The notes: generated from the letters alone by a model not told the origin. A stretch of 64,000 nucleotides of DNA from Gemmatimonadota bacterium (GCA_020351775.1 CP070666.1:3418658-3482657); one strand, 5' to 3'. Counted from the stretch's first letter, positions 11,111 to 52,938 are shown. Numbers and translations are program-made.

Positions 11111-11353
11111 ATGTCTGTGCCGGAGGTGCACCCCACCGCACTCGCCGACCGATTCACTATCGAGCGCGTGGTGGGTCGCGGGGGTATGGCCACCGTCTAC
11201 CTGGCACGAGATGTCAAGCACAATCGGCGGGTCGCACTGAAGGTTCTGTGCCCTGAACTGGCCGCGTCACTCGGCATAGATCGCTTTCTCGGGGAAATCA
11301 ACGGCCGGGGCGCCCCGGTTTCAGCAGCCGGGGCGCCACCTGATGTGCATTAA
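11111..11353 (+). pseudogene. N-terminal stub of a Ser/Thr protein kinase (subdomains I-III only)
   Basis: RFTIERVVGRGGMATVYLARDVKHNRRVALKVL...RFLGEI, after which the sequence diverges into a GC palindrome and stops. No HRD or DFG motifs. Confidence 0.7.
11309..11337. terminator. GC-rich hairpin between convergent genes (candidate bidirectional terminator)
   Basis: The arms ggcgccccgg (11309-11318) and ccggggcgcc (11328-11337) are perfect reverse complements with a 9-nt loop. It lies 13 nt past the S9 peptidase stop. The minus-strand side is followed by a modest T-rich run. Confidence 0.45.
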
Positions 11354-14172
11354 GGAACCTGACTCGGTGGTGTCTCAGCCTTCTTGCTCCGGTTTTTCTT
11401 TGCCTTCTCCTGATCGAGGAACGACACACCCTGCTTGACCCAGTCGGGTGCCGGCTCCCCTTTGAGGTAGTGCCCGAACCACTCCACTATTCTATTGTGG
11501 TAATCGATCTGATTGGCTTTTTGACTGTTGCCGTGGTTCTCTCCCTCATAAACCAGCATCACGAAATCCTTGCCGGCCCGGCGCGCCGCGTTGTAGTACT
11601 CCACACCCTGATTGAAATCGACGGCACCGTCCTCGGTCCCATGCGCCAGCAGCAGCGGCGTATTGAGCTGCTCGACATGGAACACCGGTGAGTTTGCGAT
11701 GTAGGCCTCTACATCCTCCCAGAACGGCACCTCCATCCGTCCCTGGCTGATCTCGAAGATCCGGGCGTCAGTGCTGCCGGTATTCCAGTACACCGACAGG
11801 TACATGCTCACCAAATTCGTCAGCGGTGCACCTGCCGCAGCGGCAGCAAACATGTTGGTCTGAGTGACGGTGAACGCGGTCTGATAACCTCCCCACGAAT
11901 GGCCGGTCAGCCCTACGCGGTCTGGATCCACCATCCCCGTCTCAAGCACCTTCTGCACCGCCGGTTCGATCGCCGCTACGGCCGACAAACCGGGATTGCG
12001 ATCACGGTACACGATGTCCGGCTGCAGCACGAAGTATCCTTGAGATGTGAACACAGCGGTGTTGTACGCACTGCGATCAGAGGGCACGTAATAAGTGTGC
12101 ACTGTAGGCGACCTGATCTCATAGATATAGACGATCATCGGGTACTGCCGTGCCGGCTGGTAATCCGCCGGATAAAACAGCGCGCCCTGCAAGCGCTTGC
12201 CCCATTCGGTCTCGTATTCAATCAGCGCGGAACGGCCCCAGGCAAAGTCACTCTGAAATGGATTCGTCTGGGTGACCTGCCTTGAGTCCGACAAATCCGG
12301 ACCTGCGCAGAAGTAGTCGGGTGAGTCATCAAAGTCCTGAACCATGTACGCATACACCTCGGCGTCCTTGGCTTTGACCAGCCGGCTCACGTTGGCATCC
12401 AGTGCCACGAGCTGCTCGGTCTCCCTGCCCCTGCGTAATCGCGCATAGCCGTACTGTTTGCTCCACTCACCATAAGTGCTGAAGTACAGCGGTTGCGCCA
12501 TGTCAATGAATTCTTCGTCGGGATCGAGCCGGGTTCGGCGGTATCGGATCTGGTCCTCTGCACCGTTCGTGAGTCGCGTCGCCCCGGCGCCACGCGGATC
12601 GACCTGCCATACATCGTACTTGTCGTAGATCAGTATGTAGCGATCGTCCTCCGTCCAACCGGCAAACCGGAACGGTGGCTTCTGCTCCACCGTGTGATCG
12701 TCTTCGATATCGACAAACGACGTCGGGACATCTTCCGTGATGTTCGTGTGGCGTCCAGTACGAAAGTGATACGTCCAATAGTGATCATCCATCAGATAAA
12801 GCAGGTAGTTGCCGCCAGAACTGGGTCCGAAGTTGTACTGCACTCGCTTCTTCATCTCGGAGGCCGCCCCGGTTGATGCGTCTATCACGTAGAGGTCCCG
12901 GTAGACGGGTCCGAACATCCGCTCATTCTCATAGGGCGTCTGATCAGTGCCAACCGCGAGCTGATCGCCCTCGACTAGCGTAACATCTTCCGTCAGCTCG
13001 GTGCCGAGTTGCACGAAGCGATCTTCCCTCACGTGCCACGCAGCCAAGAAGTTCTTCTCGCGGTCACGGTTCGCGTTCACCTTCTGCTGCGGATAGAGGT
13101 CCACGTCCGCCGCGTGCCAGATCTGGACCGTGCTGGGCTTCTCGTCGTCGGCTTCGGCCTGCGGTTTCGCTGCCGTCGAATCGTAGGCTGACTCAGTGGA
13201 GTCAGCAGCTGTGTCAGGCCTAAGCTCGCGATCCTTGATTCCGAAGAACACTGTTTCACCATCGTCCGACCAGCGCAGCCTGCGGAAGCTCACTATCCGC
13301 ATGTCGCTCGGGAAGCCCGCAGCCGAATCGGGGTCGAAGATGTGTTTTCGGCCATCGCGGCCGGCCAGCCCGGCCCAGGCCAGAATCACGTGGGTCGAGT
13401 CCTCGTACCTGTCGTCACCCCGAACCTGTAACACAGCAAGCTCGTCATCCTCTGGTTTCCAGGTGAGCCCCGTGTACCGCGCAGTACGGGAGTCGAGTGT
13501 CCGGAGCACGCCAGTGGTGGGATCGAAAACCTGCACGCCGTTGCCGGCCTCGCCCGCGGCATCCACCAACATCGCGAGCAATGTGCCCTCTTCCTGCCAG
13601 GCGAACTCAGAGACGTTCCCAAAGTTGATATCCAGTCCGCTGCTCAGCGTCCGGACCACGACGTCCACACCCTTGGCCTTGCGATCGTTCGCACCCTCCG
13701 GCGCATATCGGCGCATCGCCAGATACGCGCCGTCATCCGAGAACGTGAACGCGGCCACATCGGCGATGACGACGCTGTCGCCAGTCACGAGATTGCGCAG
13801 CCCGAGTTTGTTGCGCACCGGCTCCTTCTGCTCCTCAAGCTTCTCGCGCTCCTCCTCGCTCACCCCGATCGAGTAGGCCAACCAGCGGCTGTCCTCCGAG
13901 AACGCCGCGTTGGCTCCGTACGGGACAACGATCAACTCATCGCCATCCAACCGGCGCACCCTCAGCTCAGTCTCCTCGTTGACCCGGCTTATGGGATACG
14001 CCATCCAATTACCGTCAGCGGAGAAGCGAGCCATCCCAAGTCGCTCCCATTGACCGTAGTCATCGGATGTGATCGGTCGCTTCCCGTCCGTTGATTGTGC
14101 TTGCAGTGAGAAGTTGAAGGCAGCGATTGCCACCATATAGACAAGAGCCCTTGCGATGGGGCGCAGATACAT
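11350..14172 (-). CDS. S9-family serine peptidase (prolyl oligopeptidase/dipeptidyl peptidase type) with an N-terminal beta-propeller
   Basis: 940 aa with a signal peptide. Long propeller region, nucleophile elbow GHSWGGYQ, and a C-terminal hydrolase region with GTEDGAVD and H. Confidence 0.9.
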   Translation of the reverse strand: MYLRPIARALVYMVAIAAFNFSLQAQSTDGKRPITSDDYGQWERLGMARFSADGNWMAYPISRVNEETELRVRRLDGDELIVVPYGANAAFSEDSRWLAYSIGVSEEEREKLEEQKEPVRNKLGLRNLVTGDSVVIADVAAFTFSDDGAYLAMRRYAPEGANDRKAKGVDVVVRTLSSGLDINFGNVSEFAWQEEGTLLAMLVDAAGEAGNGVQVFDPTTGVLRTLDSRTARYTGLTWKPEDDELAVLQVRGDDRYEDSTHVILAWAGLAGRDGRKHIFDPDSAAGFPSDMRIVSFRRLRWSDDGETVFFGIKDRELRPDTAADSTESAYDSTAAKPQAEADDEKPSTVQIWHAADVDLYPQQKVNANRDREKNFLAAWHVREDRFVQLGTELTEDVTLVEGDQLAVGTDQTPYENERMFGPVYRDLYVIDASTGAASEMKKRVQYNFGPSSGGNYLLYLMDDHYWTYHFRTGRHTNITEDVPTSFVDIEDDHTVEQKPPFRFAGWTEDDRYILIYDKYDVWQVDPRGAGATRLTNGAEDQIRYRRTRLDPDEEFIDMAQPLYFSTYGEWSKQYGYARLRRGRETEQLVALDANVSRLVKAKDAEVYAYMVQDFDDSPDYFCAGPDLSDSRQVTQTNPFQSDFAWGRSALIEYETEWGKRLQGALFYPADYQPARQYPMIVYIYEIRSPTVHTYYVPSDRSAYNTAVFTSQGYFVLQPDIVYRDRNPGLSAVAAIEPAVQKVLETGMVDPDRVGLTGHSWGGYQTAFTVTQTNMFAAAAAGAPLTNLVSMYLSVYWNTGSTDARIFEISQGRMEVPFWEDVEAYIANSPVFHVEQLNTPLLLAHGTEDGAVDFNQGVEYYNAARRAGKDFVMLVYEGENHGNSQKANQIDYHNRIVEWFGHYLKGEPAPDWVKQGVSFLDQEKAKKNRSKKAETPPSQVP

Positions 14173-14263
14173 CGTGAACCTCCAGCGATAGTTACGGTGA
14201 TGATCGCCGGAAGTTAGGGCAGGTCATGGTCGGGTGCAAACAGTCAGCGCGCTCAACCCGGCA

Positions 14264-14926
14264 TCACGGCTGCTCCTTGTAACCTCCTGCATAGGTCATC
14301 ACACACACAATGCCGTATCCCGAGTGCGGCCCGCACGCGACCCCGACCACCCGGAGCTCGGGATTCAGAATGTTCGCTCGGTGACTGCGTTCGGGGACAC
14401 CGTCGTCGACCAGCAGCTGTGTGACGACGTCCCGGGCCGTGTCATAGCCGTACGCGACGTTCTCAGCGATTGCCGCCTCCCAGTCACCATATCTGTCTAC
14501 CCGGTCCCACGGCTGGCTGCCATCTGAGCCCAGGTGGCCCGTTCGGCCTGTCCGCCCTTGGTCCGCAACGAGATCCCGCGCTCCTAGGGACATGCCTCTG
14601 GATACACCGACCGGCGGCAGTGGCACTGTTGCCTCAAGTAGGTGCACGGCCTCGTCGACGGCCGCGATTCCCTCTTCAGTCTCGCGCACTGAACTATCGG
14701 TCAACTGGTACAGCAAGCCGTCGAATCGCGGCTTGAGGTCCCGCAGGAATCTCGCATACCCGGCGGGATCGGATCGCACCCGGTTGTGCTCGCGTACGAT
14801 CCCCCGCTCCAACTCCGACAGGTACTCGAGTGAGTCGGCCTGTGCGAACCCAACGGCCGGGAGCAGGACCAGGGCCGGGATCAGAAGCAGGAAGGCAAAT
14901 AGCGCCAGTCGCTCAGCGCCAATCAC
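14264..14926 (-). CDS. CAP/SCP/PR-1-like secreted protein
   Basis: Signal peptide. Motifs EHNRVRSDP and GENVAYGY...HRANILNPELRVVGVAC are characteristic of bacterial SCP domains. Confidence 0.8.
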   Translation of the reverse strand: MIGAERLALFAFLLLIPALVLLPAVGFAQADSLEYLSELERGIVREHNRVRSDPAGYARFLRDLKPRFDGLLYQLTDSSVRETEEGIAAVDEAVHLLEATVPLPPVGVSRGMSLGARDLVADQGRTGRTGHLGSDGSQPWDRVDRYGDWEAAIAENVAYGYDTARDVVTQLLVDDGVPERSHRANILNPELRVVGVACGPHSGYGIVCVMTYAGGYKEQP

Positions 14927-15192
14927 TGCACTTCAGACTCCACCGACTTCCAGTTCCACCACTTGAGCAGTTCGGGATCGTGGGCCGCGTGGCTCGCGAA
15001 GTAAACCGCGCAGCGAAACACGTAGAGAACACAGCGGTCTACCTGTGTTCCTCGCAGGATGCAGAGTTTGTCATACATCGACTCGGGATCCTGACCCGCG
15101 AGGTCCGGGACGCGCTCGAAGCCCAGGTCCCTCAAGTCCAACGCTATGCTCGGGCCGACCCCAGGGATCGACTCAAGATCGTGTCGTTGCAT
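14923..15192 (-). CDS. helix-hairpin-helix domain protein (Cdd1 / pathogenicity-locus-like)
   Basis: 89 aa. LESIPGVGPSIALDLRDLGF is an HhH motif. Overlaps the downstream CAP gene by 4 nt. Confidence 0.55.
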   Translation of the reverse strand: MQRHDLESIPGVGPSIALDLRDLGFERVPDLAGQDPESMYDKLCILRGTQVDRCVLYVFRCAVYFASHAAHDPELLKWWNWKSVESEVQ

Positions 15193-15220
15193 GGTCCCCC
15201 CAAATGGAAACGCGTGAAAC

Positions 15221-15811
15221 CTACCGCGATGAGACGTGCGGGAAAAACCGCGGGACGCGCTCGCAGTATTGTACGTATTCGTCTCCGAATCGGTTCCGCA
15301 GTTCCTTCTCCTCCAGCAGCACCACCAAGTAGAGCGCGGCTGCGCTGATCACGACCAGCAGGTACATGGCGAGGTAGTTGGTGAACAACGCCACCGCCGA
15401 CACGCCGAACATGAAGCTCACGTAGCGTGGGTGTCTGATTCGCGCGTAGATGCCCTGGTGCAGCAGCCGTCCGCCGGCACTGCTGGGCTGCAGTTCTGGG
15501 ACTCCCGCGAGAATCCGAAACTTGAGGTGCTTGCGGCACTGCAGCTGGATCACGATCGCCACGGCGTATAGCACACCTGCCAGCACGATCAGGGGCATAC
15601 TGGTCCCGAACTCCGTCACCAGGATCCGGTCTTTGAGCAGGTAGGCGCCGACGCCCAGGAGTATGGAGATGAGCGTCAGTAGCGAATAGGCCAGCTTCAG
15701 TCCCAGCCTGCGCCAGAAATCCACGAAGGGGTGAATGATCAACCAGTAGGGGACCGCGTAGCTCACACCCACCAACATCACGATGGCCACAACGTAGCGT
15801 GCCGTGTTCAT
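15221..15811 (-). CDS. isoprenylcysteine carboxyl methyltransferase (ICMT)/phospholipid methyltransferase family membrane protein
   Basis: Multi-TM protein. C-terminal signature GIYARIRHPRY...LLEEKELRNRFGDEYVQYCERVPRF. Confidence 0.8.
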   Translation of the reverse strand: MNTARYVVAIVMLVGVSYAVPYWLIIHPFVDFWRRLGLKLAYSLLTLISILLGVGAYLLKDRILVTEFGTSMPLIVLAGVLYAVAIVIQLQCRKHLKFRILAGVPELQPSSAGGRLLHQGIYARIRHPRYVSFMFGVSAVALFTNYLAMYLLVVISAAALYLVVLLEEKELRNRFGDEYVQYCERVPRFFPHVSSR

Positions 15812-16008
15812 GGTAAGCAGTCACATTAGGGTGTAGGATAAATGGAATTAGGGAAAGCTAAACTCGAACAGAGTATGTGTCAATTTGAGTTGCGGCCAGG
15901 GCCGACCCGCACAGGAGTCGAACTGCTGCACAAGATGTCTGGGTTGCCCCTGGTTAGTTTACGCAGATGTCTGGTCGACTTGGCAGCCGCCTTTTCCCCG
16001 AGGAAGCA

Positions 16009-18174
16009 ATGAGCACACGTAGCCGTTATCTCCTGGGCCTAGGGCCCATCCTGCTGCTCTCATCCGCCTGCGCGCCGTCCGGTGGCGCTCCAGTTCCCGA
16101 GCCGGTAGCGCCGGTCGCCGCACCACCAGACACTGTGGTGGTCGAGGTCACTCCTGCAGATGCGATCCTAGAACCGGGGCGGTTCGATACCGGCAAGATG
16201 TGGACATTCGAGAATCCGCCACTCGAATACTTCGCCGAGCAATACGATTTTCGACCGAGCGCGGAGTGGTTGGACCACGTGCGGCTGTCCTCCCTGCGGC
16301 TGCCGAACTGCACAGCCTCCTTCGTGTCGTCCGACGGTCTCGTCTTGACCAACCATCACTGCGCCCGGGAGGCGGCGACTGCCGCATCGCGTGACGGGGA
16401 GGATCTGCTCGAGTCCGGATTCTATGCCCCAACCCTGGCGGAGGAGCGGCGAGTTCCGGATTTGTATGTGGATCAGCTGGTGGAGCTGCGCGATGTTACG
16501 GATCTGGTTGAGGCCGCCGTGACGGCGATGATGGCCGAGGACGCCGAGATGCAGGCACGTGAGGCCAGACAGGAGTCGGTCGCCGACAGTACCAGCCAGG
16601 CCCTTGGTCTCGACTGCGAGGTTCAATCACTCTATAACGGCGGCAAGTACTCACTGTACTGCTACAGGCGCTACGATGACGTTCGCCTGGTGTTCATTCC
16701 AGAATTGGATATCGGTTATTTTGGCGGCGACCCCGACAACTTCACCTATCCGCGCTACGTGCTGGATGCCTCGTTCCTCCGCGTGTACGATGAAAGTGGC
16801 GAACCCTACAAGCCGGACAACCACTATGGCTGGAGCCGAAGCGGGGCGCGGGAAGGCGACGCAGTCTTCGTCGTCGGCAATCCGGGTTCGACGGAACGCC
16901 TCAATACGGTAGCGCAGCTGGAGTACAGCCGGGATTATGTCGAGCCCTTCTGGATCCGGCTGTATCAGAGCAGAGCTGATGCGCTGGCGCAATTCATGGA
17001 TCACCATCCCGACCAGCGGCCCGAGTACATCAACGATTACTTCAGCCACATGAACTCTCTCAAGCTATTCAAGGGGAGATACAAGGCGCTCCAAGACCCC
17101 GAGATCATGGGCCGCAAACGCGGATTCGAGCGGCAGTTCCGCGACGCCGTTAAGGCGGACCCGGACTTGCACGGACTGTACGGCAGCCTGTGGGATGAGG
17201 TCGCTCAGATCAGAGCTCAGATGTCGGCCCTGGCCCCGACACGCAACGGCCTCTGGTTCAGCGGCTCATTATGGTCTCAGACTCTCGGCACTGCCGCGGA
17301 CATGCTGCTGTACGCGTTCAGGGTGATGAATGGGATCGACGACGAAGTGACCGAGGATCTGCTTTCGGATCTCGAAGAACGAACCTTCAACACCGATCTT
17401 GACCGACACTTCCTCGAACTCCAGTTGCAGGACGCAGCCGAGTGGCTGGGCGACGACGACCCATTTGTGCGCGCCGCTCTTGCGGGGACGACGCCGAGTG
17501 AAGCAGCCCGGATGCTCGTCAACCAGGCAGTCGCGGTCACCGATCTGGAGCAGAGGAAGGCCCTACTCGGCAACCCGACTGCGATCTTGAACAGCCCAGA
17601 CCCAGCAGTCAGGCTCATGCGAGAGGCGCTCCCGCGATTCATCGATGCTGAACTGGCATTTCAGGAGTTGTCCACCACGGAGGAAGCCAAGGTGGCCAAG
17701 CTAGCGCGCGCCCTGTTCGAGGTTCAAGGAACCGCACTGGCCCCCGATGCCACTTTCACGCTCCGCATTGCCGACGGCGTGGTATCCTCGTACGACTACA
17801 ACGGGACCAAGGCACCGGCATTCACCACATTCTACGGACTGTACGACCGTCACTACTCGCACGCCGGCTCAGACGACTGGGCGCTTCCGGAACGTTGGCT
17901 CAATCCGCCCGCAGAGTTCGATCTCAGCACGCCGCTCAACATGGTTCATACCAACGACACTGTGGGCGGCAACTCCGGCAGCCCGCTGATCAGCATCGCC
18001 GGTGACGTCGTGGGTCTGCTGTTCGACGGCAACATAGAAAGCCTGTCAGGCGACTTCATCTACACCGATGAGGGGGCGCGTTCGGTTTCGGTCAAGGCTG
18101 AGGCGATCATCGAGGCTTTGCGCCATGTCTACGGTGCACAACGCATCGTCGACGAGTTACTCCGGGAGAATTAG
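16009..18174 (+). CDS. S46-family dipeptidyl-peptidase (DPP7/DPP11-like) lipoprotein
   Basis: ATG preceded by GAGGAAG. Lipobox LLSSAC. Catalytic His region NCTASFVSSDGLVLTNHHCA and catalytic Ser GGNSGSPL. The frame is open from 15967. Confidence 0.9.
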   Translation: MSTRSRYLLGLGPILLLSSACAPSGGAPVPEPVAPVAAPPDTVVVEVTPADAILEPGRFDTGKMWTFENPPLEYFAEQYDFRPSAEWLDHVRLSSLRLPNCTASFVSSDGLVLTNHHCAREAATAASRDGEDLLESGFYAPTLAEERRVPDLYVDQLVELRDVTDLVEAAVTAMMAEDAEMQAREARQESVADSTSQALGLDCEVQSLYNGGKYSLYCYRRYDDVRLVFIPELDIGYFGGDPDNFTYPRYVLDASFLRVYDESGEPYKPDNHYGWSRSGAREGDAVFVVGNPGSTERLNTVAQLEYSRDYVEPFWIRLYQSRADALAQFMDHHPDQRPEYINDYFSHMNSLKLFKGRYKALQDPEIMGRKRGFERQFRDAVKADPDLHGLYGSLWDEVAQIRAQMSALAPTRNGLWFSGSLWSQTLGTAADMLLYAFRVMNGIDDEVTEDLLSDLEERTFNTDLDRHFLELQLQDAAEWLGDDDPFVRAALAGTTPSEAARMLVNQAVAVTDLEQRKALLGNPTAILNSPDPAVRLMREALPRFIDAELAFQELSTTEEAKVAKLARALFEVQGTALAPDATFTLRIADGVVSSYDYNGTKAPAFTTFYGLYDRHYSHAGSDDWALPERWLNPPAEFDLSTPLNMVHTNDTVGGNSGSPLISIAGDVVGLLFDGNIESLSGDFIYTDEGARSVSVKAEAIIEALRHVYGAQRIVDELLREN

Positions 18175-18366: not shown

Positions 18367-18765
<399 letters not shown>

Positions 18766-18920
18766 TCCAGGCTCTACTAACCGGCGTCGACGGGCTACCT
18801 TACTGGGGTCTTCCCCTGGGAGGCAAAACGTCGGAAGAACACCATCAAACCCCGGCAACCTACTCGGCTGACGAAGCGAGAAGCATCAAGGAGGCGTTTG
18901 CCCAGGCCGAAACCCCCCTC

Positions 18921-19061
18921 ATGTGCCCCCGGTGCAACGCGGAGCTCCGTGTGAGCCCACCGGTACTGCGACAAGGCAGCACGCTGCAGGAGGTGTCCTG
19001 TCCATCCTGCAATCGGTGCGTGATCGCGCGCGGCCTCCCCGAGCGGCCAGCCACTTTCTGA
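18921..19061 (+). CDS. small zinc-ribbon protein (46 aa from the first ATG; untracked ORF)
   Basis: MCPRCNAELRVSPPVLRQGSTLQEVSCPSCNRCVIARGLPERPATF has two CxxC pairs. GC3-rich codon usage extends upstream to about 18858 with no canonical start there. No obvious SD before the ATG. Confidence 0.35.
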   Translation: MCPRCNAELRVSPPVLRQGSTLQEVSCPSCNRCVIARGLPERPATF

Positions 19062-19110: not shown

Positions 19111-20682
19111 GTGAACCAAACTGTAAGCCCAGAATTCCTCGCCCTTCAGGAAGCACTTGCGGGCCGCTACTCGATCGAGCGCGAACTCGGTAGAGGAGGT
19201 ATGGGGATCGTGCTGCTGGCGCGCGACGTTGCCCTCGATCGCTTGGTGGCGATCAAGCTGCTGCCACCGGCGCTTGCAGCGGACTCGGCGCTCAGGGAGC
19301 GCTTCATCCGAGAAGCGCGCACGGCGGCCGGCTTGTCCCACCCCAACATCGTTCCGATCCACATCGTGGAGGAACATGGTGATCTGGTGTTCTTCGTGAT
19401 GGGTTTCGTCGATGGAGAAACGCTGCGTGAGCGTGTGGAGCGGAGCGGTCCACTCACACCCCGCGCCACGATGCGATTGGTCCAAGAGGTTGCCTGGGCA
19501 CTGGCCCACGCTCATCAGCGCGGTATCGTGCATCGCGACATCAAGCCCGACAACATCCTAGTCGAGCGTGCCTCCGACCGGGCGATGGTCACCGATTTTG
19601 GCATCGCCTGGGCGACTGCGGGTGAAGGTCCTGGCGCCGAGGGTGAAGTGGTTGGCACTGCCAGGTACATGAGTCCAGAACAGGCTTGCGGCGAGCCCGT
19701 CGATGCCCGTAGTGACCTCTATTCGTTGGGAGCGACTGCCTTCTACGCGCTCACCGGGCAAGCACCATTCACGGCCGCCAGCGTCCCGGCGCTGCTGGCA
19801 AAGCACGTCAACGAACGTCCGCCCGAAGTAAGTGCTCTCCGACCAGAGGTGCCCTCGAAGCTGGCGACACTGGTGAACCGCTGTCTGGAGAAGAACCCCG
19901 AAGATCGATTCCCATCGGGCGATGAGTTGGCGAAAGCAGTGAGTGACGCTCGCGGGCGAGAACTACGAGCGCCACCCCTGGTTCGCAGTTTCTTGCGCAA
20001 TGCCGAGGTGAGCACGGCCGTCATCCTGGCCGTCGCGATCGCTGGAGGATCAGTGGAAGTGGGCGGAGGTGGCGCGTCGATCAACCTCCTACCGTACATA
20101 CTGTTGTTCCAACTCGGCTACGCGGCGCGCCGCCTGCTACGGAACGGATACACATTTGATGACATTAGATCAGCCCTCCTGGCAGAGGCCCGCGCACAGG
20201 ACGAAGAGGCCGAGGCCGTTCAGTCAAAGAAGTGGATCCGCCGGATCTCGGGAGCATGGCACCGTATCTGGGCGAGCGGTTTCGGGCGCTTCTTCTTCAA
20301 GGTGTCCGGAATCGGACTCAAGGAACCCGAACGCTTGGTGCTACCCTCATCGGATGCTACGGAGCTGGTTCTGGGAAGGGCCGCAACCGAGATATACGGT
20401 GGGCTGCCGTCGGACGTGCGGCACCGGCTGGGCGACGTGACGGGCGTCATTAGCCGCCTCGAAGAGGACGCGGAGGAATTGCGGCGACGCGGTGACACGG
20501 GCGAACGGCTGACCGAAGCGGTGGCTGCACTCGAGAACGTACGCCTGGGGCTGCTACGCCTCAGGGCGGGAGTCGGATCGGTGGACGACCTCACCGAACA
20601 CATAGAGCGTGCGCAAGAGATCGGCGAGCGCATCGATGCCGAGCTGGCGGGAAGGAGTGAGGTTCGGGAGGCGCTGGAATGA
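19111..20682 (+). CDS. Ser/Thr protein kinase with a membrane-associated helical C-terminal region
   Basis: GTG start. Motifs GRGGMGIV, VAIKLL, HRDIKPDNIL, DFGIA and SPEQ. After ~270 aa there is a hydrophobic segment and a charged coiled region. Confidence 0.9.
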   Translation: MNQTVSPEFLALQEALAGRYSIERELGRGGMGIVLLARDVALDRLVAIKLLPPALAADSALRERFIREARTAAGLSHPNIVPIHIVEEHGDLVFFVMGFVDGETLRERVERSGPLTPRATMRLVQEVAWALAHAHQRGIVHRDIKPDNILVERASDRAMVTDFGIAWATAGEGPGAEGEVVGTARYMSPEQACGEPVDARSDLYSLGATAFYALTGQAPFTAASVPALLAKHVNERPPEVSALRPEVPSKLATLVNRCLEKNPEDRFPSGDELAKAVSDARGRELRAPPLVRSFLRNAEVSTAVILAVAIAGGSVEVGGGGASINLLPYILLFQLGYAARRLLRNGYTFDDIRSALLAEARAQDEEAEAVQSKKWIRRISGAWHRIWASGFGRFFFKVSGIGLKEPERLVLPSSDATELVLGRAATEIYGGLPSDVRHRLGDVTGVISRLEEDAEELRRRGDTGERLTEAVAALENVRLGLLRLRAGVGSVDDLTEHIERAQEIGERIDAELAGRSEVREALE

Positions 20683-28620: not shown

Positions 28621-28984
28621 CAGCCCACGGAGCCCTGCTGGCACCCTTTGTGTCACACCGGATGTGAAGGGATCCTCGCAGAGACGAACTTTGTGTTCCA
28701 AAGTACTTTATAACCAGGAGGCACGGCACGACCTCTCGACTTGACGGCGGCAGGGTGGTGGAGATGGGGAGTACTGGCACAACCTCGTCACCCACCGTGA
28801 GCGAGGAGTACTCCGGTGGATCGCGATCTGTGGCTTTGCGGGCGGTGTCCTCGTCACCCTGCTCGTGCTGGGCTTCGCCCTTTCGACCATCTTGCGGGAG
28901 TGAGCCGGCAGCAGCCGTCGCGCGTAGGGAAGGCAGCGACAGCGCACACAACGAGCGGATACCGATTATTTTTGGATCCCACCT

Positions 28985-29066
28985 GCGACCGTGGCGGAAT
29001 TGGCAGACGCGCAGGATTTAGGATCCTGTGGGGAAACCCGTGGGGGTTCGAGTCCCCCCGGTCGCA
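28985..29066 (+). tRNA. tRNA-Leu, anticodon TAG, long variable arm
   Basis: Acceptor stem gcgaccg/cggtcgc. Anticodon stem cagga/tcctg with loop ttTAGga. Variable arm tggggaaacccgt. T-arm ggggg-ttcgagt-ccccc. No encoded CCA. Confidence 0.9.
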
Positions 29067-29243
29067 TAGCACCCCACGATTCGTCCCACTTGAGCGGACC
29101 TCGGGCCTGGGCCCAGCGTGCCTCCTCAGACCGGTGGTTCCCTGGTGGACTCTTCATCCCATATGTTTCTAACAGGATCCGGCCACGGCGCGGTAATCGC
29201 GCGCCTCCGTTAGATTTATCAGCTATTTCGCAAGTAGGTATTC

Positions 29244-41535: not shown

Positions 41536-42020
41536 TCATTCCACCGTCACGCATTTGGCAAGGTTGCGCGGCCGGTCCATGTCACAGCCACGTCGCACTG
41601 CTACGTTGTAGGCAAACAGTTGCAGTGGCAGCACGCTCAGCACGGAGGTCAGGGGATGCATTGCGTCCGGTATCTTGAACACATGGTCAGTCAAACGGGC
41701 CATCTGGTCATCACCCTCCGTCACCACGGCGAGGACCCGTCCGCCTCGTGCCTCAACTTGCTCGAGATTGGATAAGATCTTGGAATGGACCCCGTCCTGG
41801 CGCGCTACGAAGACGACAGGCATCATTTCGTCGACCTAGGCAAGGGGACCATGCTTCATCTCCGCAGCCGGATACCCTTCGGCATGGATGTGGTAGATCT
41901 CTTTCAGCTTGAGTGGGCAAGACCTGCCGAGTCGTAGCCCCGGTGCTTGAGACGCTGCAAGCCTTCGAGTACCACCGACACGGCTTCACGATATCCTACG
42001 TATCCGACCACGCCACACAA
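41536..42020 (-). pseudogene. glmS: glutamine-fructose-6-phosphate aminotransferase remnant (internal ~1.3 kb missing, frameshift, in-frame TAG)
   Basis: The TTG-Cys start ([34 protein letters not shown]) lies 9 nt after a GGAGA immediately downstream of the glmM stop. Near 41913 the homology jumps to another frame: [39 protein letters not shown]...RPRNLAKCVTVE (GlmS C-terminus). Confidence 0.8.
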
Positions 42021-42034: not shown

Positions 42035-43384
42035 TCAGCTACTCATATACTCCTTCGCGGCACTCACCAACGTGTCTGCAGCTTCGCTGGTCGGTGCCTC
42101 GGCGATCAACCGCACTATCGGCTCGGTTCCGGACGGTCGAACGTGGAGCCAGGAATCGCCCCAAGCAAGGCGGAGTCCATCTTGCCGATCGACTGTGGCA
42201 TCCGAGAATCGCTGCTGCAGCGACTGATAGATCCCCTCCATGGATCCCTGTCGCCCTACCTTCGCCTTCACTATCGCGTATCGTGGTGCTGCCCGCACCA
42301 ACTCGGCCACTGAACGTCCGGTCCGCGCCATCAGGCTCAGCACCAACCCGGCCGCAACCGGCGCATCGCGTCCCAGATGCAAGTCGGGTAGCATCACTCC
42401 CCCATTCCCTTCACCACCGATCACAGCACCGACTTGTTGCATCAATGCTGCGACGTTGGCCTCCCCTACCGGTGCACGCCGAACCACCGCACCGTAATCC
42501 CGCGCAGCGTCTTCGACCACCAGCGACGTGGATAGGTTGGTTACGACCACACCGGTACGTCGCGCTAGGACCTCGCGGACTGCAAACGCCAGCGTGTAAT
42601 CCTCGCCGATCGGTGTCCCGGTCTCATCCACGACAGCGAGCCGGTCTACATCTGGATCGACGGCGATCCCCACATCTGCCTCTGCGCGCCTCACCAACTC
42701 TCCAAGTCCCGACAGGTTCTCAGGCACCGGTTCAGGCAGCCGCGGAAACATGCCGTCAGGTTCCAAATCCATCCCCATCGTGCGACAAGCCAGCCGGTCG
42801 AGTAGCTGGGGCATGATATTCCCGCCGGCACCCCGCACGCAATCCAATGCCACGGTGAAGCGCCGTCGCCGGATTGCCGTAACGTCGATCAGATCCAACC
42901 CCATGACCGCGTCAAGATGACGTTCGACGGCAGCCTCGTCCTCCACCGCATCGCCAGGAAAGGCCGCAGTTTCAGGGGCAGGATTAGCCGCTAACTCGAA
43001 CAGCCGGCCGGCCGTCTTTCGGCTCAAGAAGAGACCATCCGGACCCACGAACTTCAAGGCATTCCACTCTACTGGATTGTGGCTTGCCGTGATCACGATC
43101 CCACCCGCCGCACCATGATGCTCGACTGCGAGTTGTGCGGTCGGGGTTGGTATCAGACCGCAGTCGATGACCGAGACACCGACCGACTGCAAGGCCGATC
43201 CCACGACGTCCGCGAACATCGGGCCTGATGCCCGGGCATCCCGGGCCAGAACAGCCGTCCGGCCACCCGATTCACGGATCAAGGCTCCGAACGCCGTGGC
43301 ATACCGCTCCGCGACTTCAGGCGTGAGGCTCGTGCCCACAATCCCCCGCACACCCGACACACTGACAATTAGGGCATCACTCAT
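42035..43384 (-). CDS. glmM: phosphoglucosamine mutase
   Basis: VSVSGVRG, active-site [14 protein letters not shown], and DPDVDR metal loop. The frame is open from 43399. Confidence 0.93.
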
Positions 43385-43416
43385 CTGGCAGCAGACCACA
43401 GTTGCAGGTGTATTGT

Positions 43417-45780: not shown

Positions 45781-45877
45781 CTCGAGGTCTCAGTGTGAAA
45801 CCCCGTAGTCTGGCAAGCGTACGGATTAGCAGCGAGGTGGGTCCCCGTGCAGCAACCTCAGCGATTGGGAGGCAGCA

Positions 45878-46885: not shown

Positions 46886-48159
46886 GGTTAATGGTCATCG
46901 GGGGAGGAGGCCGGGAACACACTCTGTGCTGGGCTCTCTCCCCCTCAGCCACGGTCTTCTGTGCGCCGGGTAATCCGGGCACTGAGGAGATCGGCACCAA
47001 TCTGCCGCTCGATCCCGGTGACCATGAGGCCGTCATCTCCGCAGTTGCAGAGCACCACATCGATTTGGTGGTGATCGGCCCCGAGGCACCGCTCGCTCAG
47101 GGTCTAGTGGACCGTTTGGCCGCGAGTGGCCATTGCGCGTTTGGCCCCACCGCCGCCGCTGCTCGCCTCGAATCGTCCAAGGCTTTCGCCAAGCAGGTCA
47201 TGGTATCGGCTGGAGTAGCGACAGCGGCCAGCGAGACGTTCACCGAACCAAACAAGGCTCTCGATTACATCGCCTCGCACCCCGAGCCGCTGGTAGTCAA
47301 GGCCTCCGGCCTTGCCGCTGGCAAGGGCGCAATCGTGTGCCGCACGCGCGCCGAGGCGAGCACCGCTGCGCGTGAGATGCTGGGCGGCAAGTTCGGCAGT
47401 GCCGGTGAGCTGGTACTGGTCGAGGAGTTCTTGGAGGGTGAGGAGCTCTCGGTACTGGCGTTGACGGACGGCGAACGAGCCATGCTGCTCCCTCCATCCC
47501 AGGACCACAAACGCATCGGCGAGGGAGACACGGGGCCGAACACCGGCGGAATGGGTGCCTACGCTCCAGTATCGATCGCTGGGCCCGATCTGCTGGGTCG
47601 CGTGCTCAATGACGTGATCAGGCCGGTTCTCCGTAACATGGCAACCGATGGCACTCCGTATCGCGGCGTGCTCTATGCGGGCCTCATGATTGACTCGGAT
47701 GGTGATCCGCGGGTGTTGGAATTCAACTGCAGATTCGGCGACCCCGAGGCTCAGGTAGTGCTCCCGCTTCTGGAGACCGACTTGACGGACCACATCTGGC
47801 GTATCGCGGCAGACGAAGACTGGAAACCGGAGGATCTCAGCACCGCGCAGAGCGGCGCAGCAGTCACGACGGTGTTGGCGTCACCGGGATACCCGGAGGC
47901 ACCCGTCAAAGGGGCAGCCATCGGCATTCCTGAGGAGCTACCAGCCCGTACGCTCCTGTTTCACGCCGGAACGGCGCGGGATGACCAAGGCGTGCTGCGG
48001 ACTGCTGGCGGCAGGGTTCTTTGCGCCACCGGCCTCGGCACTAGTGTCACGGAAGCTTTGGCCCGGAGCCGCGAGCTGGCCGATGCGGTCCAGTTTGAGG
48101 GCAAGGTCTTTCGCAGAGACATAGCCTGGCGCGAGGTTGCGCGTGCCGGAGCTGCCTGA
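46882..48159 (+). CDS. purD: phosphoribosylamine-glycine ligase
   Basis: MVIGGGGREH, ATP-grasp motifs, GPNTGGMGAY and EFNCRFGDPE. GTGA overlap with the upstream gene. Confidence 0.95.
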   Translation: MRLMVIGGGGREHTLCWALSPSATVFCAPGNPGTEEIGTNLPLDPGDHEAVISAVAEHHIDLVVIGPEAPLAQGLVDRLAASGHCAFGPTAAAARLESSKAFAKQVMVSAGVATAASETFTEPNKALDYIASHPEPLVVKASGLAAGKGAIVCRTRAEASTAAREMLGGKFGSAGELVLVEEFLEGEELSVLALTDGERAMLLPPSQDHKRIGEGDTGPNTGGMGAYAPVSIAGPDLLGRVLNDVIRPVLRNMATDGTPYRGVLYAGLMIDSDGDPRVLEFNCRFGDPEAQVVLPLLETDLTDHIWRIAADEDWKPEDLSTAQSGAAVTTVLASPGYPEAPVKGAAIGIPEELPARTLLFHAGTARDDQGVLRTAGGRVLCATGLGTSVTEALARSRELADAVQFEGKVFRRDIAWREVARAGAA

Positions 48160-48979
48160 GGTAGAAACCATCGTCCGCGACCTTGCTCCGCAGCTGGAAG
48201 GCCGCAAGTTCCACAACCCCCGCCTCCTCAAGTCGGATGTACTTCGCAAGGTCAGCCGGGAGCGACTGCTGGATTCTCTCCGGGGTAGACGCATCCTATC
48301 AGTGCGGCGGCGTGCCAAGCACGTCGTGTTCCTGCTGGACGGCGGTCTCCGCTTGGTTATCCAGCCCCGCATGACCGGCGTTTTCACCATCTGCCGTCAG
48401 AGACTGACCCAGCAGGAGCGCCGGTATGCAGTACTGCTCGTGAGCATAGGAGACGGCGCTACCTTCGTGTATCGTGATGTTCGTCGGCTCGGCACGATCT
48501 GGCTGTTGAACGAGCGACAGTGGCAGACCTATACTGCTGGCATCGGCCCAGAGCCTCTGGATGACGGTTTTGATCTGGATCAGTTCGTCGCACAGATCGG
48601 CGGCAGCCGTCAGGCTATCAAGAAAGTACTGATGGATCAGAGGCGCCTGGCCGGTGTTGGGAACATCTATGCCAATGAAGCGCTGTTTCGAGCCCGAGTA
48701 GATCCTTCTCGAGCCACGCAGCGCTTGAGCCGCTCTGAGGCGGGCCGCATCCACCGGGAGGTACGCGCAGTCTTAAGCGCGGCGATTGCCGCCAGCGGCA
48801 CGACCGTGCGCGACTACAGGACGGGGACCGGCCAGAGTGGCTCGTTCCAGTTCCAGCTCCGGGCCTACGGCCGTGGTGGTGAGCCCTGTCCGCGGTGCAG
48901 AACCAGGCTGGTCACCACGCACGCCATCGACGGCCGGGCAACGACTTTCTGTTGGCGCTGCCAACGCGGGCGCCAATAG
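48143..48979 (+). CDS. mutM: formamidopyrimidine-DNA glycosylase
   Basis: The GTG start gives (M)PELPEVE with the catalytic N-terminal Pro. H2TH region and C-terminal zinc finger CPRCRT...FCWRCQ. Overlaps the purD end by 17 nt. Confidence 0.92.
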   Translation: MPELPEVETIVRDLAPQLEGRKFHNPRLLKSDVLRKVSRERLLDSLRGRRILSVRRRAKHVVFLLDGGLRLVIQPRMTGVFTICRQRLTQQERRYAVLLVSIGDGATFVYRDVRRLGTIWLLNERQWQTYTAGIGPEPLDDGFDLDQFVAQIGGSRQAIKKVLMDQRRLAGVGNIYANEALFRARVDPSRATQRLSRSEAGRIHREVRAVLSAAIAASGTTVRDYRTGTGQSGSFQFQLRAYGRGGEPCPRCRTRLVTTHAIDGRATTFCWRCQRGRQ

Positions 48980-49013
48980 TCTTCATTCGTCCCTAGCTGA
49001 GGAGTTGCAGTTT

Positions 49014-50111
49014 TTGTCGACACTGGCCCTTCGCCTCACGGATCTCGGCCGCCTACGGCGCAAGGTCCACGCGCTGGCGGAGAACCGTCCGGCCGTTTAC
49101 CGCATGCTCAACCCGACCGGCAGGTCCGTATACGTAGGGAAAGCCAAGCAGCTGCGCAACCGACTGCTATCTTACTTCCGGGCCCGGTACCCGGAGGACA
49201 AGGCCGCGCGAATTCTCAACGCGACGGCCGACATCGAGTGGGATTACGTCCCCTCCGAATTCGCCGCATTGCTGCAGGAACTGACACAGATCCGGCGATA
49301 TCGGCCCATCTTCAACGTCCGCATGAACCGGAACCGGCGTGTCGGATTCATCAAGATCTCGGCCGGAGGCGCGCCCAAGATTTATGTCGGTAGCACACCC
49401 GGAACCCCGGGCACCCGACACTATGGCCCTTTCACCAGCATCGGACGGCTCAAGCAGGGGATCCGCACGCTGAACGACCTACTCGGCCTGCGGGATTGCT
49501 CGATGGCAATGCCGATGGTGTTCAAGGAACAGGGAGACCTGTTTGGCTGTGCCAGTCGCGCAGCATGCATGCGTCACGATCTGGGGAGCTGTACTGCTCC
49601 ATGCGGTGGGTTCGTCAGCGAAAGAGATTACCAGGCACGCTTGCGGACTGCCGTGTCGTTTCTCGAGGCCAGCGACATCACACCGCTAAATCTGGTGGTG
49701 GAGCAAATGACCGCGGCGAGCGAGTGCAGCGAGTTTGAACACGCTGCACGGTGGCGCAGCAAGTTCGACCGGCTCGAGTGGCTCCTGTCGGCTGCGGTGA
49801 GGGCACGCGCCGCAGTGACTGCACTCAGTTTCGTCTACACCGATCCCGGCGTAAGGGGTGATGATCGGGCCTACATAATCCGTGACGCTTCCGTGCGCGC
49901 CGCAGCGCCCGCGCCACGATCACCGATCGAACGGGAGGCCTTTCAAGCGCTGGTGGCTCAACACGCCGGTCCCGAACTGCAGGGTCCCGCGCTTCCCGCG
50001 GACTCGATCGACGAAATGCTCCTGTTGCTCACGTGGTTCCGCCGTCATCCGACCGCACTCAACCGTACGGTACCGCTGGCCCAGTGGCTCGAGCACGACC
50101 AAGCAGGCTAG
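49014..50111 (+). CDS. Cho-like excinuclease (UvrC N-terminal-half homologue: GIY-YIG plus UVR domain)
   Basis: TTG start 9 nt after GAGGAG. GIY-YIG core AVYRMLN...VYVGKAKQLRNRLLSYF...E. Cys cluster and UVR-like helix pair. No RNase H/HhH C-terminal half. Confidence 0.7.
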   Translation: MSTLALRLTDLGRLRRKVHALAENRPAVYRMLNPTGRSVYVGKAKQLRNRLLSYFRARYPEDKAARILNATADIEWDYVPSEFAALLQELTQIRRYRPIFNVRMNRNRRVGFIKISAGGAPKIYVGSTPGTPGTRHYGPFTSIGRLKQGIRTLNDLLGLRDCSMAMPMVFKEQGDLFGCASRAACMRHDLGSCTAPCGGFVSERDYQARLRTAVSFLEASDITPLNLVVEQMTAASECSEFEHAARWRSKFDRLEWLLSAAVRARAAVTALSFVYTDPGVRGDDRAYIIRDASVRAAAPAPRSPIEREAFQALVAQHAGPELQGPALPADSIDEMLLLLTWFRRHPTALNRTVPLAQWLEHDQAG

Positions 50112-50194
50112 TCTGTCAGTTGCCTCGGTTGCCGGGGCGGTTAGTATATCCCCGTAACGAGTCTGAGAAGATCTTTATCTAGGGTCCGATCACT

Positions 50195-51169
50195 GTGTTG
50201 CTAGCAATCGCGCAGTTGCTGCTTGGCCTGGCCCTGCTGCTCGGCGGGGGACACTATCTGGTGCGGGGTGCAACGAGAATTGCCCTGCTTGCTCGAGTGT
50301 CAACTGCTATAGTCGGTCTGACTGTGGTTGCTATGGGTACGAGCCTCCCGGAGCTGGCGGTCAGCGTGGGAGCGGCTGCGCGGGGCAGTACGGACCTGGC
50401 CTACGGAAACATCATCGGGTCAACCATCTTCAACGTCGGCATGATACTCGGCGTTGCGGCTCTGGTAGCTCCCATGGTTGTCCAGCGTCAAACGCTCCGC
50501 CTTGAGTACCCTTTCATGTTCGTAGTTGCCTGTATGGTGCTTCTCCTGTGCCGCGATTCGATGATTGACCGGCTGGAAGGTGCATTTCTTGTTGCTGCCC
50601 TCGCCTTGTTCACAGTCTACGTTGTTCACTTGGCCCAGCGAGAAATCGATGCGGATGAGGCTGTGGCGTTGGAACGCGAGGTCCAAAAGGCCGCCCACAT
50701 CAAGAATGGCATCGGCCGCGCTTGGGGCATCAACGCGCTCCTGGCCACACTGGGCATCGCGGCCTTGATCGGGGGGGCGGATCAGGTGGTTGCTGGTGCG
50801 GTGAAGATCGCGGTCTTCTGGGGTGTCGATGAGCGGATGATCGGGCTCACAGTCGTCGCGATGGGTACGAGTCTTCCGGAACTGGCTACCAGCGCAGTGG
50901 CCGCCAAGGAGGGGGAGCACGAAATCGCGTTGGCCAACGTGATCGGCTCCAATCTCTTCAATCTGCTGGGAGTATTGGGTGCCACGGCGGCCATCTTCCC
51001 CGTCCCAATCAACGAGGCAGCCAAGAATATCGACAACTGGGTGATGCTGGGATTCTGCGCGGCGATGTTCCCTCTGATGTGGTTCGGACGTCGGGTAGGT
51101 CGCTGGGAAGGCCTGGTATTGCTCGCCGGGTTCGCCGTGTACCTGGGATATCTGTTGCTAACCCGCTGA
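50195..51169 (+). CDS. Ca2+/Na+ antiporter (CaCA/YrbG family)
   Basis: Two alpha-repeat signatures (GTSLPELAVSV... and GTSLPELATSA...GSNLFN) in a 10-TM protein. Confidence 0.85.
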   Translation: MLLAIAQLLLGLALLLGGGHYLVRGATRIALLARVSTAIVGLTVVAMGTSLPELAVSVGAAARGSTDLAYGNIIGSTIFNVGMILGVAALVAPMVVQRQTLRLEYPFMFVVACMVLLLCRDSMIDRLEGAFLVAALALFTVYVVHLAQREIDADEAVALEREVQKAAHIKNGIGRAWGINALLATLGIAALIGGADQVVAGAVKIAVFWGVDERMIGLTVVAMGTSLPELATSAVAAKEGEHEIALANVIGSNLFNLLGVLGATAAIFPVPINEAAKNIDNWVMLGFCAAMFPLMWFGRRVGRWEGLVLLAGFAVYLGYLLLTR

Positions 51170-51595
51170 CTCGAGTGAGACGAGGCGGGCCCGGGGAGGA
51201 AGCCCCGGCTCCAGTTCCAGAATGCCAACCGTGGGTAACTCATCGCCTTGCACCGACCCGGCGAAGCCAGGATTCGTGACCGCTACGATCTCGTCAACCA
51301 ATTCGAGCAGCGGTCGATCTGTATGTCCGTACACTATGATCTCCGCATCGGGATAGACTGCGTGCAGCCGCGTCAGGGTGGGCAAGCCAAGTTGATCGAC
51401 GGCCAATCGCCCTCCGGTGGCTCCTCGAAGCCCGGCTTCGTCGGTGATACCCATCTCGGTGCTGAGCAGCCGCCACCCATGGCTGCTTACTATGAGCCGG
51501 ACGGGTATGTCATGCTCGACCAGGACCTGCAGCAGACGCACTGCGTAAGGCGCACCAGATGCACCAGTAACCGCGGGAACCCAGAGTGCCGTCAC
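51158..51595 (-). pseudogene. chimeric ORF: UbiX-type flavin prenyltransferase N-terminus joined in frame to a YfcE/MJ0936-type metallophosphoesterase C-terminus
   Basis: GTG start after AGGAGAGG. ALWVPAVTGASGAPYAVRLLQVLVEHDIPVRLIVSS is the UbiX N-terminus (~60 aa). After ~51380-51420 the sequence reads LHAVYPDAEIIVYGHTDRPLLELVDEIVAVTNPGF...VGILELE (phosphoesterase C-terminus with degenerate GHTH and NPGS motifs). Confidence 0.65.
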
Positions 51596-51806
51596 TGACC
51601 TCTCCTGTTGGGAGTGGGTGATTTGATGGGATGCCGCGGTGGACCGGGCGGCGGTGGACCCTTCTGGCGGTCGGGCGCGGGGCGGGGGACCGGTCGCTTC
51701 ACCCGAGGTGCCGGGCGGTCCTGGCGTCTCACTTTCCGGGGGCCGCCACCTGCCGACCCGGCTCCGCATCGATCCGTGCAGTCCCACGCCCGCCTCGCCG
51801 CTTCCC

Positions 51807-52938
51807 TCACCACGTTCGATCTCCCAGTGCCGCGAGAAACAAGACGACGGATATGATCCCGTTCATCGTGAAGAACGCTGCATCGAGCCTGCTCAGATCG
51901 TGGGGGCGTACGAGGCTGTGCTCCCAAGCCAGCAGGACCGCAGCAACCGCTACGCCGGCATAATACGCCGTGCCATGGCTCGCCCCTACACCAAACACCA
52001 CGAGGCCCAGCAGCGTCACCGCATGCAGCACTTTTCCGATTAGAATACTACGCGACGGACCCAGCAGCGCGACTGCACTGTGCAAGCCATGTTCCCGATC
52101 AAACCGCTCGTCCTGGAGTGCATAGAAGATATCGAACCCACCAACCCAGGTCAGGACGGCAGTGACGGCTTTGGTCATGGTGACCGGCTTGCGCCGCAGA
52201 AATCCAGCGAACACGTATTCGTCGATGCTGGGTGGCAGCCGGGCGGAGGCCGAATACATCGACGCAGGATCTCCGCCTAGCACCATGACAACAGGCATTC
52301 TATCACCGCGCGCTGCCATGGCACGCCAGTGAGCGGCACCGACTTTGTGCCTTTGCCAATGCATCGCCAGCAACTTTCGCGTGCACCTGAACACGGTACG
52401 TGCCCACGTTGCGGACCCCCGACTGCGGATCGCGAGTCACCACCTGAGGCAGAGTCAAATAGGGACCGCCGTCTCCTGGCCAACACGTATTGATGGGCAG
52501 GCTCATCAGATCGATGTCAGCTCCCTGTTTGATCACCCCCTGACATGGTGCGCCGCGCGACACCGAACGCGGCGGGTACTTCGCGATCTCAGCGATTCTG
52601 GGCAGCAGTTCCAGCTTCTCGCGCTGGCCCTCCGGGACCCTCAACTTGATCAGAGCTTCAATTCGTGCACCGACATCGTCGAGTCGCTCCACGCCAAGTG
52701 CAAGAGACATTCGGTTGACGGACCCGAAGGCATTGATCACCACCGGGATGTCACTCGTGACTCCGCTGTCCAGAACGGGGCGCTCGCACAGTAGCGGCGG
52801 TCCGCCGCCGGCGATCTTCACGCACCGGTCGGCTATCTCGGTGATTTCGTGCACCACCGACACCGGGTGGCTGATTCGAAGCAGCCGGTCCCGGCGGGCT
52901 ACTTCGGTAATGAAACCATGAAGATTATCTATGGTCAC
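51807..52938 (-). pseudogene. UbiD-family decarboxylase N-terminal half (1-nt frameshift) fused to the C-terminal third of a UbiA-family prenyltransferase
   Basis: GTG start after GGAGAGG. UbiD motifs GPPLLCE, NAFGS, PINTCWPGDGGPYLTLPQVVTRDP and NVGTYRVQV. The frame switches near 52378 to KLLAMHWQRHKVGAAHW...MPVVMVLGGDP...DEYVFAGFLR. After ~52160 it reads LTWVGGFDIFYALQDERFDREHGLHS plus terminal TM helices (UbiA). Confidence 0.7.

Follow-up and report, generated by a model that had tools for sequence, protein, structure and literature searches.

Probable deletion pseudogenes at a kinase gene, glmS and a late quinone operon in a Gemmatimonadota genome

Genes that lack much of their length inside otherwise well-kept operons raise the question of whether the organism or its assembly has dropped the missing sequence. 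Four such remnants lie between positions 11,111 and 52,938 of a 64,000-nt stretch of DNA from Gemmatimonadota bacterium (GCA_020351775.1 CP070666.1:3418658-3482657), and this whole stretch is referred to here as the window. They are a Ser/Thr kinase stub, a remnant of glmS, a fusion of ubiD with ubiA (ubiD::ubiA), and a fusion of ubiX with a phosphoesterase gene (ubiX::phosphoesterase). A sequence-only reading had offered two explanations, recent decay toward metabolic dependency or systematic deletions introduced by assembly. Our results indicate, with a probability of about 0.75, that the four remnants are genuine, ordinary and fairly recent deletion pseudogenes in the chromosome.

Four remnants among full-length neighbours

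The window has a G+C content of 61% and contains no Ns. It comes from a metagenome-assembled genome (MAG) of 5,510,074 bp deposited at NCBI (locus tags JSW71_), and the nearest relatives of its proteins are Gemmatimonadota. A scan of GTDB species representatives with PurD gave the relatives L001-L003, L005 and L018, all Gemmatimonadota MAGs, with 50-60% identity; they are suited to comparisons of synteny and are too distant for inferring microhomology at the DNA level. In these relatives, tblastn showed that gene order is kept across 40.5-54.4 kb, as maf-dtd-glmS-glmM-RR/HD-metC-M48-purD-fpg-uvrC-like and, further on, phosphoesterase-ubiX-ubiA-ubiD-ubiE-sigma. A nearer genome, CP070792.1 (L082; 3.17 Mb), is syntenic over 43.4-64 kb with 71-91% protein identity, and all of its genes there are full length, as are all other genes of L002, L003 and L082 over the syntenic 40.5-64 kb. 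In the relatives, GlmS has about 610 aa, UbiD 493-498 aa (493 in L002 and L003, 498 in L082), UbiA 299-307 aa (307 and 299, respectively), UbiX 193-195 aa (193 and 195), and the Metallophos_2 phosphoesterase 158-162 aa (158 and 162).

Completeness of the genes in the window was judged by Pfam and orthologue coverage instead of by a gene caller based on the G+C content of third codon positions, which discriminated poorly at this base composition and overlooked some real genes. About 50 other genes were full length by these measures. Lesions were limited to 6 of about 58 genes, at three loci, in addition to the start codon of one small open reading frame (ORF), and no insertion sequence (IS) elements were found in the window. 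The four remnants and their large internal losses had been proposed from the sequence alone, and both were upheld by the comparison: each remnant retains partial Pfam domains and has full-length counterparts in syntenic relatives, and about 1.31 kb is gone from the kinase gene (relative to the contig L095 described below), 1.35 kb from glmS, 1.26 kb from ubiD::ubiA and 0.65 kb from ubiX::phosphoesterase. The tight ATGA, GTGA and TAAATG couplings ascribed to the neighbouring genes were also found when the window sequence was checked. Coordinates are collected in Table 1.

Three of the lesions hit successive genes of a single operon, whose leading gene, ubiE, is intact. The GTG start of ubiD at 52938 leaves a 14-nt overlap with the ubiE stop, and the frame at 52303-52968 (minus strand) matches UbiD_N plus UbiD 3-67 of 206. 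The frameshift that had been noticed beside an AAA is real by comparison with relatives: at 52378-52384 (GTG CAC GCG AAA G TTG) the stretch has 16 nt where relatives have 18, a net change of -2 nt or, equivalently, +1 nt with one codon lost. The middle part of ubiD, in the shifted frame, is joined in frame to the 3' part of ubiA (..KAVT followed by AVLTWVGG..), and a single ORF at 51807-52394 (minus strand) matches UbiD 68-141 of 206 and then UbiA 144-248 of 250. UbiA thereby lacks its N-terminal 182 residues, including the first Asp-rich motif. Further along the operon, the frame at 51158-51787 (minus strand) matches Flavoprotein 5-46 of 162 followed by a Metallophos_2 tail. Four filler codons (RLAV, 51398-51409) stand between the ubiX and phosphoesterase parts, all in frame; UbiX residues 63-195 and phosphoesterase residues 1-87 are absent. 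The metal-binding GHTH of the phosphoesterase, present in all homologues compared, reads GHTD in the window (GAT, 51317-51319).

The glmS remnant occupies 485 nt (41536-42020), compared with about 1.83 kb in relatives. It shares with GlmS of L002 and L003 its position and orientation in the maf-dtd-glmS-glmM neighbourhood, directly downstream of glmM, as well as the TTG start (at 42020) with a ribosome-binding site upstream (GGAG), the N-terminal Cys motif and the C-terminal ...NLAK(S/C)VTVE. It differs from them in that about 449 codons (residues ~37-485) are missing between its two fragments, which lie in different frames. The frame of the 5' fragment closes 4 codons past the junction, and an in-frame TAG stands at 41836-41838 where relatives have Leu (PIALIDE). 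On 41536-41826 (minus strand), Pfam gives SIS 55-129 of 131. The intact glmM stands beside this dead partner.

Two other partial glmS genes came to light. In an unrelated genome, a 6404-nt Logan contig of SRR30153473 (L165), present in 2 samples, carries at 4892-5431 an in-frame mini-GlmS of 179 aa (P0254), in which GlmS residues 1-53 are joined to ALKLKEI... and continue through the C-terminus. Its right-hand boundary (ALKLKEI) coincides with the glmS junction of the window, which may be a coincidence or a fragile site. The partial glmS in the sister record CP070722.1 (L164) was considered as a second deletion and rejected, as a 100-N scaffold gap at about 5900-6000 cuts the gene. Such 'partial' proteins in gapped chromosome-level records are not deletions.

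In the kinase stub, homology to kinases is confined to 11111-11299, which holds the GxGxxG loop and the VALK lysine (subdomains I-II); the catalytic loop is gone. The last 17 codons have no kinase homology, and the stop overlaps that of a convergent S9 peptidase gene (TTAA, 11350-11353). A metagenome scan with the adjacent TenA yielded L083 (TenA 89% identical), L095 and L098, in all of which the same kinase comes after tenA (75-78% identity over stub residues 1-64). In L095 the order is tenA, a whole 516-aa kinase and then the convergent S9 peptidase (85% identical). The hairpin at 11305-11339 is probably the terminator of the S9 peptidase gene, now adjoining the kinase breakpoint.

At the same site in another contig (L105, Ga0111155_1242; 5205-5290), tenA directly abuts the convergent S9 peptidase gene, with neither kinase nor remnant, so the kinase is variably present here among lineages.

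Table 1. Positions of the remnants and of associated features in the window
Feature	Position	Strand	Basis
Ser/Thr kinase stub, 80 codons	11111..11353	+	Pfam Pkinase 2-49/263; DNA read
GC-rich perfect hairpin within stub tail, just past S9 stop	11305..11339	.	fold about -27 to -30 kcal/mol; minus-strand terminator-like match
Conserved small zinc-ribbon ORF, ~76 aa, two CxxC pairs	18828..19058	+	64 homologues; alignment
glmS 3' fragment, residues ~486-610, end of second SIS domain	41536..41915	-	tblastn, 67% identity to L003 GlmS 486-606
glmS 5' fragment, residues 1-36 (LCGVVGY...GYDSAGLA)	41916..42020	-	tblastn with L003 GlmS, residues 2-36
glmM, intact	42035..43399	-	four PGM_PMM domains; 59-62% identity, full length, to L001, L002, L003
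Metallophos_2 phosphoesterase 3' part, residues ~88-162	51158..51409	-	63% identity to L082 and L002 phosphoesterases
ubiX (MqnM-like) 5' part, residues 1-62, GTG start 51595	51410..51595	-	64% identity to L082 UbiX 5-62
Non-coding GC-rich spacer, ~210 nt, ubiA stop to ubiX start	51596..51806	-	comparison with relatives
ubiA (MqnP-like) 3' part, residues ~183-299	51807..52160	-	75% identity to L082 UbiA 176-297
ubiD middle part, residues ~188-260, shifted frame	52161..52379	-	78% identity to L082 UbiD 188-263; Pfam UbiD 68-141
ubiD (MqnL-like) 5' part, residues 1-187	52380..52938	-	tblastn with L002 and L082 UbiD
ubiE/menG methyltransferase, intact, first gene of the eroded operon	52925..53671	-	Pfam Ubie_methyltran 5-231/233; 71% identity to L082, full length

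Support for the deletions as pseudogenes

A search for homologues of the 195-aa ORF at 51807-52394 returned P0001, which has 152 aa and is encoded on a 990-nt Logan contig (L081) of run SRR14739665. The contig matches window positions 51491-52474 at 982 of 990 positions and equals the window base for base across the ubiD frameshift and the ubiD::ubiA junction; a gene call on it also begins at the ubiX start codon. It differs by a 6-nt TATTAT tandem insertion and 2 substitutions, all within 52061-52122 in the dead part of ubiA, which is consistent with strain-level variation building up on the deletion allele. Since another assembler recovered the frameshift and the junction on a second haplotype, neither is an artefact of one assembler, and both are older than the split between the two strains. 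The frameshift had been taken as a pointer to assembly error, a view that its identical presence in this contig does not support. A literature search on SRR14739665, CP070792, GCA_020346845, UCG85324 and JSW71 found no publication.

The distribution of the smaller lesions points the same way. The remnant DNA amounts to 2,328 nt, or 3.6% of the window, and holds both the ubiD frameshift and the glmS TAG; by estimate, two or more of three point lesions would land there by chance with a probability of about 0.004. With the frameshift, the TAG and the GHTD change all co-locating with deletions, the pattern fits decay better than assembler error. The clustering of the lesions is weak evidence when taken alone, as six lesions placed at random would put three or more within 1.9 kb with a probability of about 0.1. 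A search at all junctions found no flanking direct repeats of at least 7 nt, so that nothing there would mislead a graph assembler. Repeat-mediated deletion was rejected on the same result, and a GCCGTC hexamer found on both sides of the ubiD::ubiA junction was rejected as a crossover site because both copies are retained.

All four remnants show homology to their family over part of the length, a full-length syntenic orthologue, and a lost motif or broken frame. Decaying bacterial genes show a deletional bias, for example in Mycobacterium leprae, Rickettsia and Salmonella Typhi. Deletion-type bacterial pseudogenes have the same internal losses of 0.6-1.4 kb, native ends in syntenic places, secondary lesions and intact neighbours as the remnants described here. 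Unlike in those genomes, the decay here does not appear to be genome-wide: of the 58 genes in the window about 6 are affected, the genome has 5.5 Mb, and IS elements are lacking from the window. Another difference from known deletion pseudogenes is that two junctions happen to be in frame, and annotation pipelines therefore call these remnants proteins.

The following course of events would account for the remnants. Four separate illegitimate-recombination deletions of 0.65-1.35 kb may have removed the body of the kinase gene, the central part of glmS and the boundaries between ubiD and ubiA and between ubiX and the phosphoesterase gene. The dead remnants would then have gained further lesions (the ubiD frameshift, the nonsense codon of glmS and the altered catalytic motif of the phosphoesterase), while the surrounding genes stayed under selection. 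The lost steps were presumably dispensable, being bypassed or duplicated elsewhere in the 5.5-Mb genome, and candidates for a bypass are a second glmS, amino-sugar salvage and the classical Men pathway. The kinase may be an accessory paralogue, as it is also absent from other lineages.

The UbiX and phosphoesterase genes vary in other lineages as well. In relatives the two are overlapping neighbours (L082, 10897-11959), and in a JGI contig (L166, 5334-6302) they form a full-length 322-aa UbiX~phosphoesterase fusion (P0124) within an intact ubiE-ubiD-ubiA operon. This natural fusion hints that the phosphoesterase acts together with UbiX/MqnM; as a speculation, it might make dimethylallyl monophosphate from dimethylallyl pyrophosphate for prenyl-flavin mononucleotide. 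A second Gemmatimonadota lineage (L163, ENA ERZ27315205 k141_8981, 292-918; P0123 and P0125) has a different in-frame deletion, joining UbiX residues 1-~113 to the phosphoesterase from residue ~48 to the end. Exactly at the junction, six residues (DRAADV) distinguish P0123 from P0125, which suggests either two separate events or one secondary deletion. The spacer between ubiA and ubiX (51596-51806) is probably a lineage feature rather than a lesion: it measures 127 nt in L002, is replaced by a 4-nt overlap in L082, and has a similar length in L163. Taken together, the different deletion in L163, P0123 and P0125 and the lack of the kinase in L105 indicate that these genes have been lost repeatedly, and repeated loss in other lineages supports their dispensability.

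Several points weigh against this conclusion. For the kinase, glmS and ubiX::phosphoesterase junctions, searches turned up no near-identical sequence other than the annotation of the source itself, and the search with the glmS remnant gave no match above 77% identity, which leaves that junction without independent support. By analogy with ubiD::ubiA and from their point lesions, these three junctions would also be real. Run SRR14739665 may share the sample of the MAG, in which case the assembler was independent and the library perhaps not. The sister record CP070722.1, of the same accession series, has 100-N gaps and is a scaffold, so the assembly quality of the project is not beyond doubt. 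The remnants are 63-78% identical to their orthologues and the intact neighbours 71-91%; with identities about alike, the deletions appear to be of fairly recent date, and the values do not attest to a long period of neutral decay. Finally, bypass or redundancy is a presumption, the genes examined being those of the 64-kb window.

Dependency, assembly and short-protein explanations

What the losses mean depends on the pathways concerned. UbiA, UbiD and UbiX homologues that co-occur with Mqn genes have been predicted to be MqnP, MqnL and MqnM (PMC4746308). Gemmatimonadota make menaquinone, reportedly by either the Men or the Mqn route, with the futalosine route favoured in Gemmatimonadales and the classical Men route in the order SG8-23 (PMC9426454). 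The series ubiE-ubiD-ubiA-ubiX is predicted to match the late futalosine steps MenG, MqnL, MqnP and MqnM, the choice of Mqn over Ubi resting on taxonomy and on this literature (PMC4746308; PMC9426454). In gene order and families, the published late futalosine genes (PMC4746308) agree with the intact operons of L002, L082 and L166. In the window, by contrast, ubiE is intact and the other three are remnants, and an additional Metallophos_2 phosphoesterase stands outside the published scheme. The UbiE/MenG methyltransferase is needed by both the Men and the Mqn routes. Dead enzymes beside an intact glmM and an intact ubiE/menG fit a situation in which the lost steps are bypassed or replaced elsewhere. 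A dead enzyme next to an intact partner thus poses a concrete question, namely whether the pathway has been replaced or the organism is auxotrophic.

Real deletions might instead mean a true loss of function, so that the bacterium has come, or is coming, to rely on its neighbours for menaquinone or menaquinone precursors as well as for amino sugars. The glmS in the syntenic position is dead, as are all visible genes of the MqnL/P/M type, and the second lineage described above has also eroded ubiX and the phosphoesterase gene. The best 120 proteins shown by each search included no near-identical second copy of UbiA or GlmS from the source genome, but divergent paralogues would escape such a comparison. 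Dependence on quinones has been reported for other uncultured bacteria (PMC5738691). However, the intact glmM and ubiE/menG suggest that both pathways still run from another entry point, and some Gemmatimonadota orders commonly have the Men pathway (PMC9426454). Genome-wide reduction, which would be marked by a small genome, dense pseudogenes throughout and loosened operons, is unlikely given a 5.5-Mb genome, about 50 intact genes in the window and intact couplings. We regard dependency as unlikely. Between the two explanations offered at the outset, decay fits better than assembly deletions where L081 allows a test, whereas the supposed trend toward metabolic dependency fits less well with a 5.51-Mb genome and intact neighbours.

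A broader proposal, which we consider rather improbable, is that large-genome sediment Gemmatimonadota repeatedly and independently erode the late MqnL/P/M and phosphoesterase operon, and here also glmS, while keeping menG and glmM. If true, it would represent a switch from Mqn to Men in progress, or cross-feeding on quinones and amino sugars of the community, and such dependence would then occur in a free-living bacterium that is not genome-reduced.

An assembly or consensus artefact would mean that the organism has intact genes and that the assembler, the scaffolder or a minority deletion haplotype made the gaps. In favour of this, the deletions are densely placed (four within 42 kb), the sequence comes from a MAG, one of the 100-N gaps in the record of the same series lies inside glmS, and 3 of the 4 junctions lack independent confirmation. 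MAG genes shortened by misassembly show the same symptom, being shorter than their orthologues. The present case differs from them in that one junction and a frameshift recur exactly in a read-based contig from another assembler and a distinct haplotype, the deletions are accompanied by point lesions (nonsense, frameshift and motif changes), and flanking repeats are lacking. The window, moreover, is free of Ns, and the lesions are restricted to a few genes, three of them in one operon. An artefact is accordingly quite improbable as the source of the remnants, and deletion pseudogenes remain the preferred explanation.

The short ORFs could also be functional, either as members of shorter families or as newly fused proteins, such as a UbiD-UbiA or UbiX-phosphoesterase chimera and a mini-GlmS. 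Both inter-gene junctions are in frame, both fused ORFs are annotated as proteins by NCBI, a full-length UbiX~phosphoesterase fusion does exist (P0124), and the in-frame mini-GlmS P0254 has the same right-hand boundary as the glmS remnant. However, two junctions would both be in frame by chance with a probability of 1/9, a value short of significance. Apart from P0001 and P0121 (the NCBI entry of the source), matches to the 195-aa ORF are UbiA proteins of 290-320 aa that cover about 60% of it, matches to the ubiX::phosphoesterase ORF span about 33% of the query, and the glmS remnant is covered entirely by P0254 only. The notion that the fragments are complete members of shorter families is barely credible, since the source entry and its strain variant are the only homologues of similar length to span either fused ORF. 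Essential parts have been lost as well: the catalytic loop of the kinase, the first Asp-rich motif of UbiA, motifs I-IV of the phosphoesterase and most of the UbiX fold. In addition, ubiD is frameshifted upstream of the fusion, and glmS is both out of frame and interrupted by a stop.

Annotation of the remnants and other features of the window

The main use of the finding is as an annotation warning, as two of the remnants are publicly presented as proteins. NCBI lists 51807-52298 (minus strand) as the 163-aa 'UbiA family prenyltransferase' UCG85324.1 (P0121), which agrees letter for letter and falls in the 90% cluster of P0001. The fused ubiX::phosphoesterase ORF is listed as 'hypothetical protein JSW71_15495' (P0122) and still matches the Flavoprotein domain. 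With stubs annotated in this way, reconstructions based on domains or on KEGG Orthology would wrongly score steps of the quinone pathway as present, and a metabolic reconstruction of the MAG could also overlook that the syntenic glmS is dead. As a point of method, gene stubs in MAGs can be checked against independent run-level assemblies without the original reads.

Two further stretches, at 18858 and 28745, had been suspected of being start-less coding fragments. At 18858 there is a conserved ORF without an ATG, GTG or TTG start, but it presents a start-codon problem rather than a deletion remnant. According to a start-codon scan, the frame is open from 18597 to 19058, and the first ATG, GTG or TTG comes only at 18921. 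The 66-residue translation at 18858 has 64 homologues, mostly small proteins of 67-83 aa, and their Met (e.g., in P0363) aligns to a Thr of the window, encoded by ACG at 18828, 11 codons before TYS; a GGAGG lies 4 nt upstream of this ACG. The ORF thus appears to be a real full-length small gene, with either a lost start codon, a base error or rare ACG initiation. An intact kinase gene follows downstream at 19111-20682. At 28745, the supposed fragment was rejected: it is a 52-codon open frame without a Pfam match or start, ordinary at the G+C content of the window, in a gap that holds tRNA-Leu (28984-29067).

Beyond the eroded operon, the interval at 54453-57221 (plus strand) between the ECF sigma factor gene and an Mrp/ParA-like gene holds three genes, which code for proteins of 175 aa and 461 aa and for a toast-rack protein of 290 aa. 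They are not at that position in CP070792.1, and are probably an anti-sigma/stress module that has been gained or lost.

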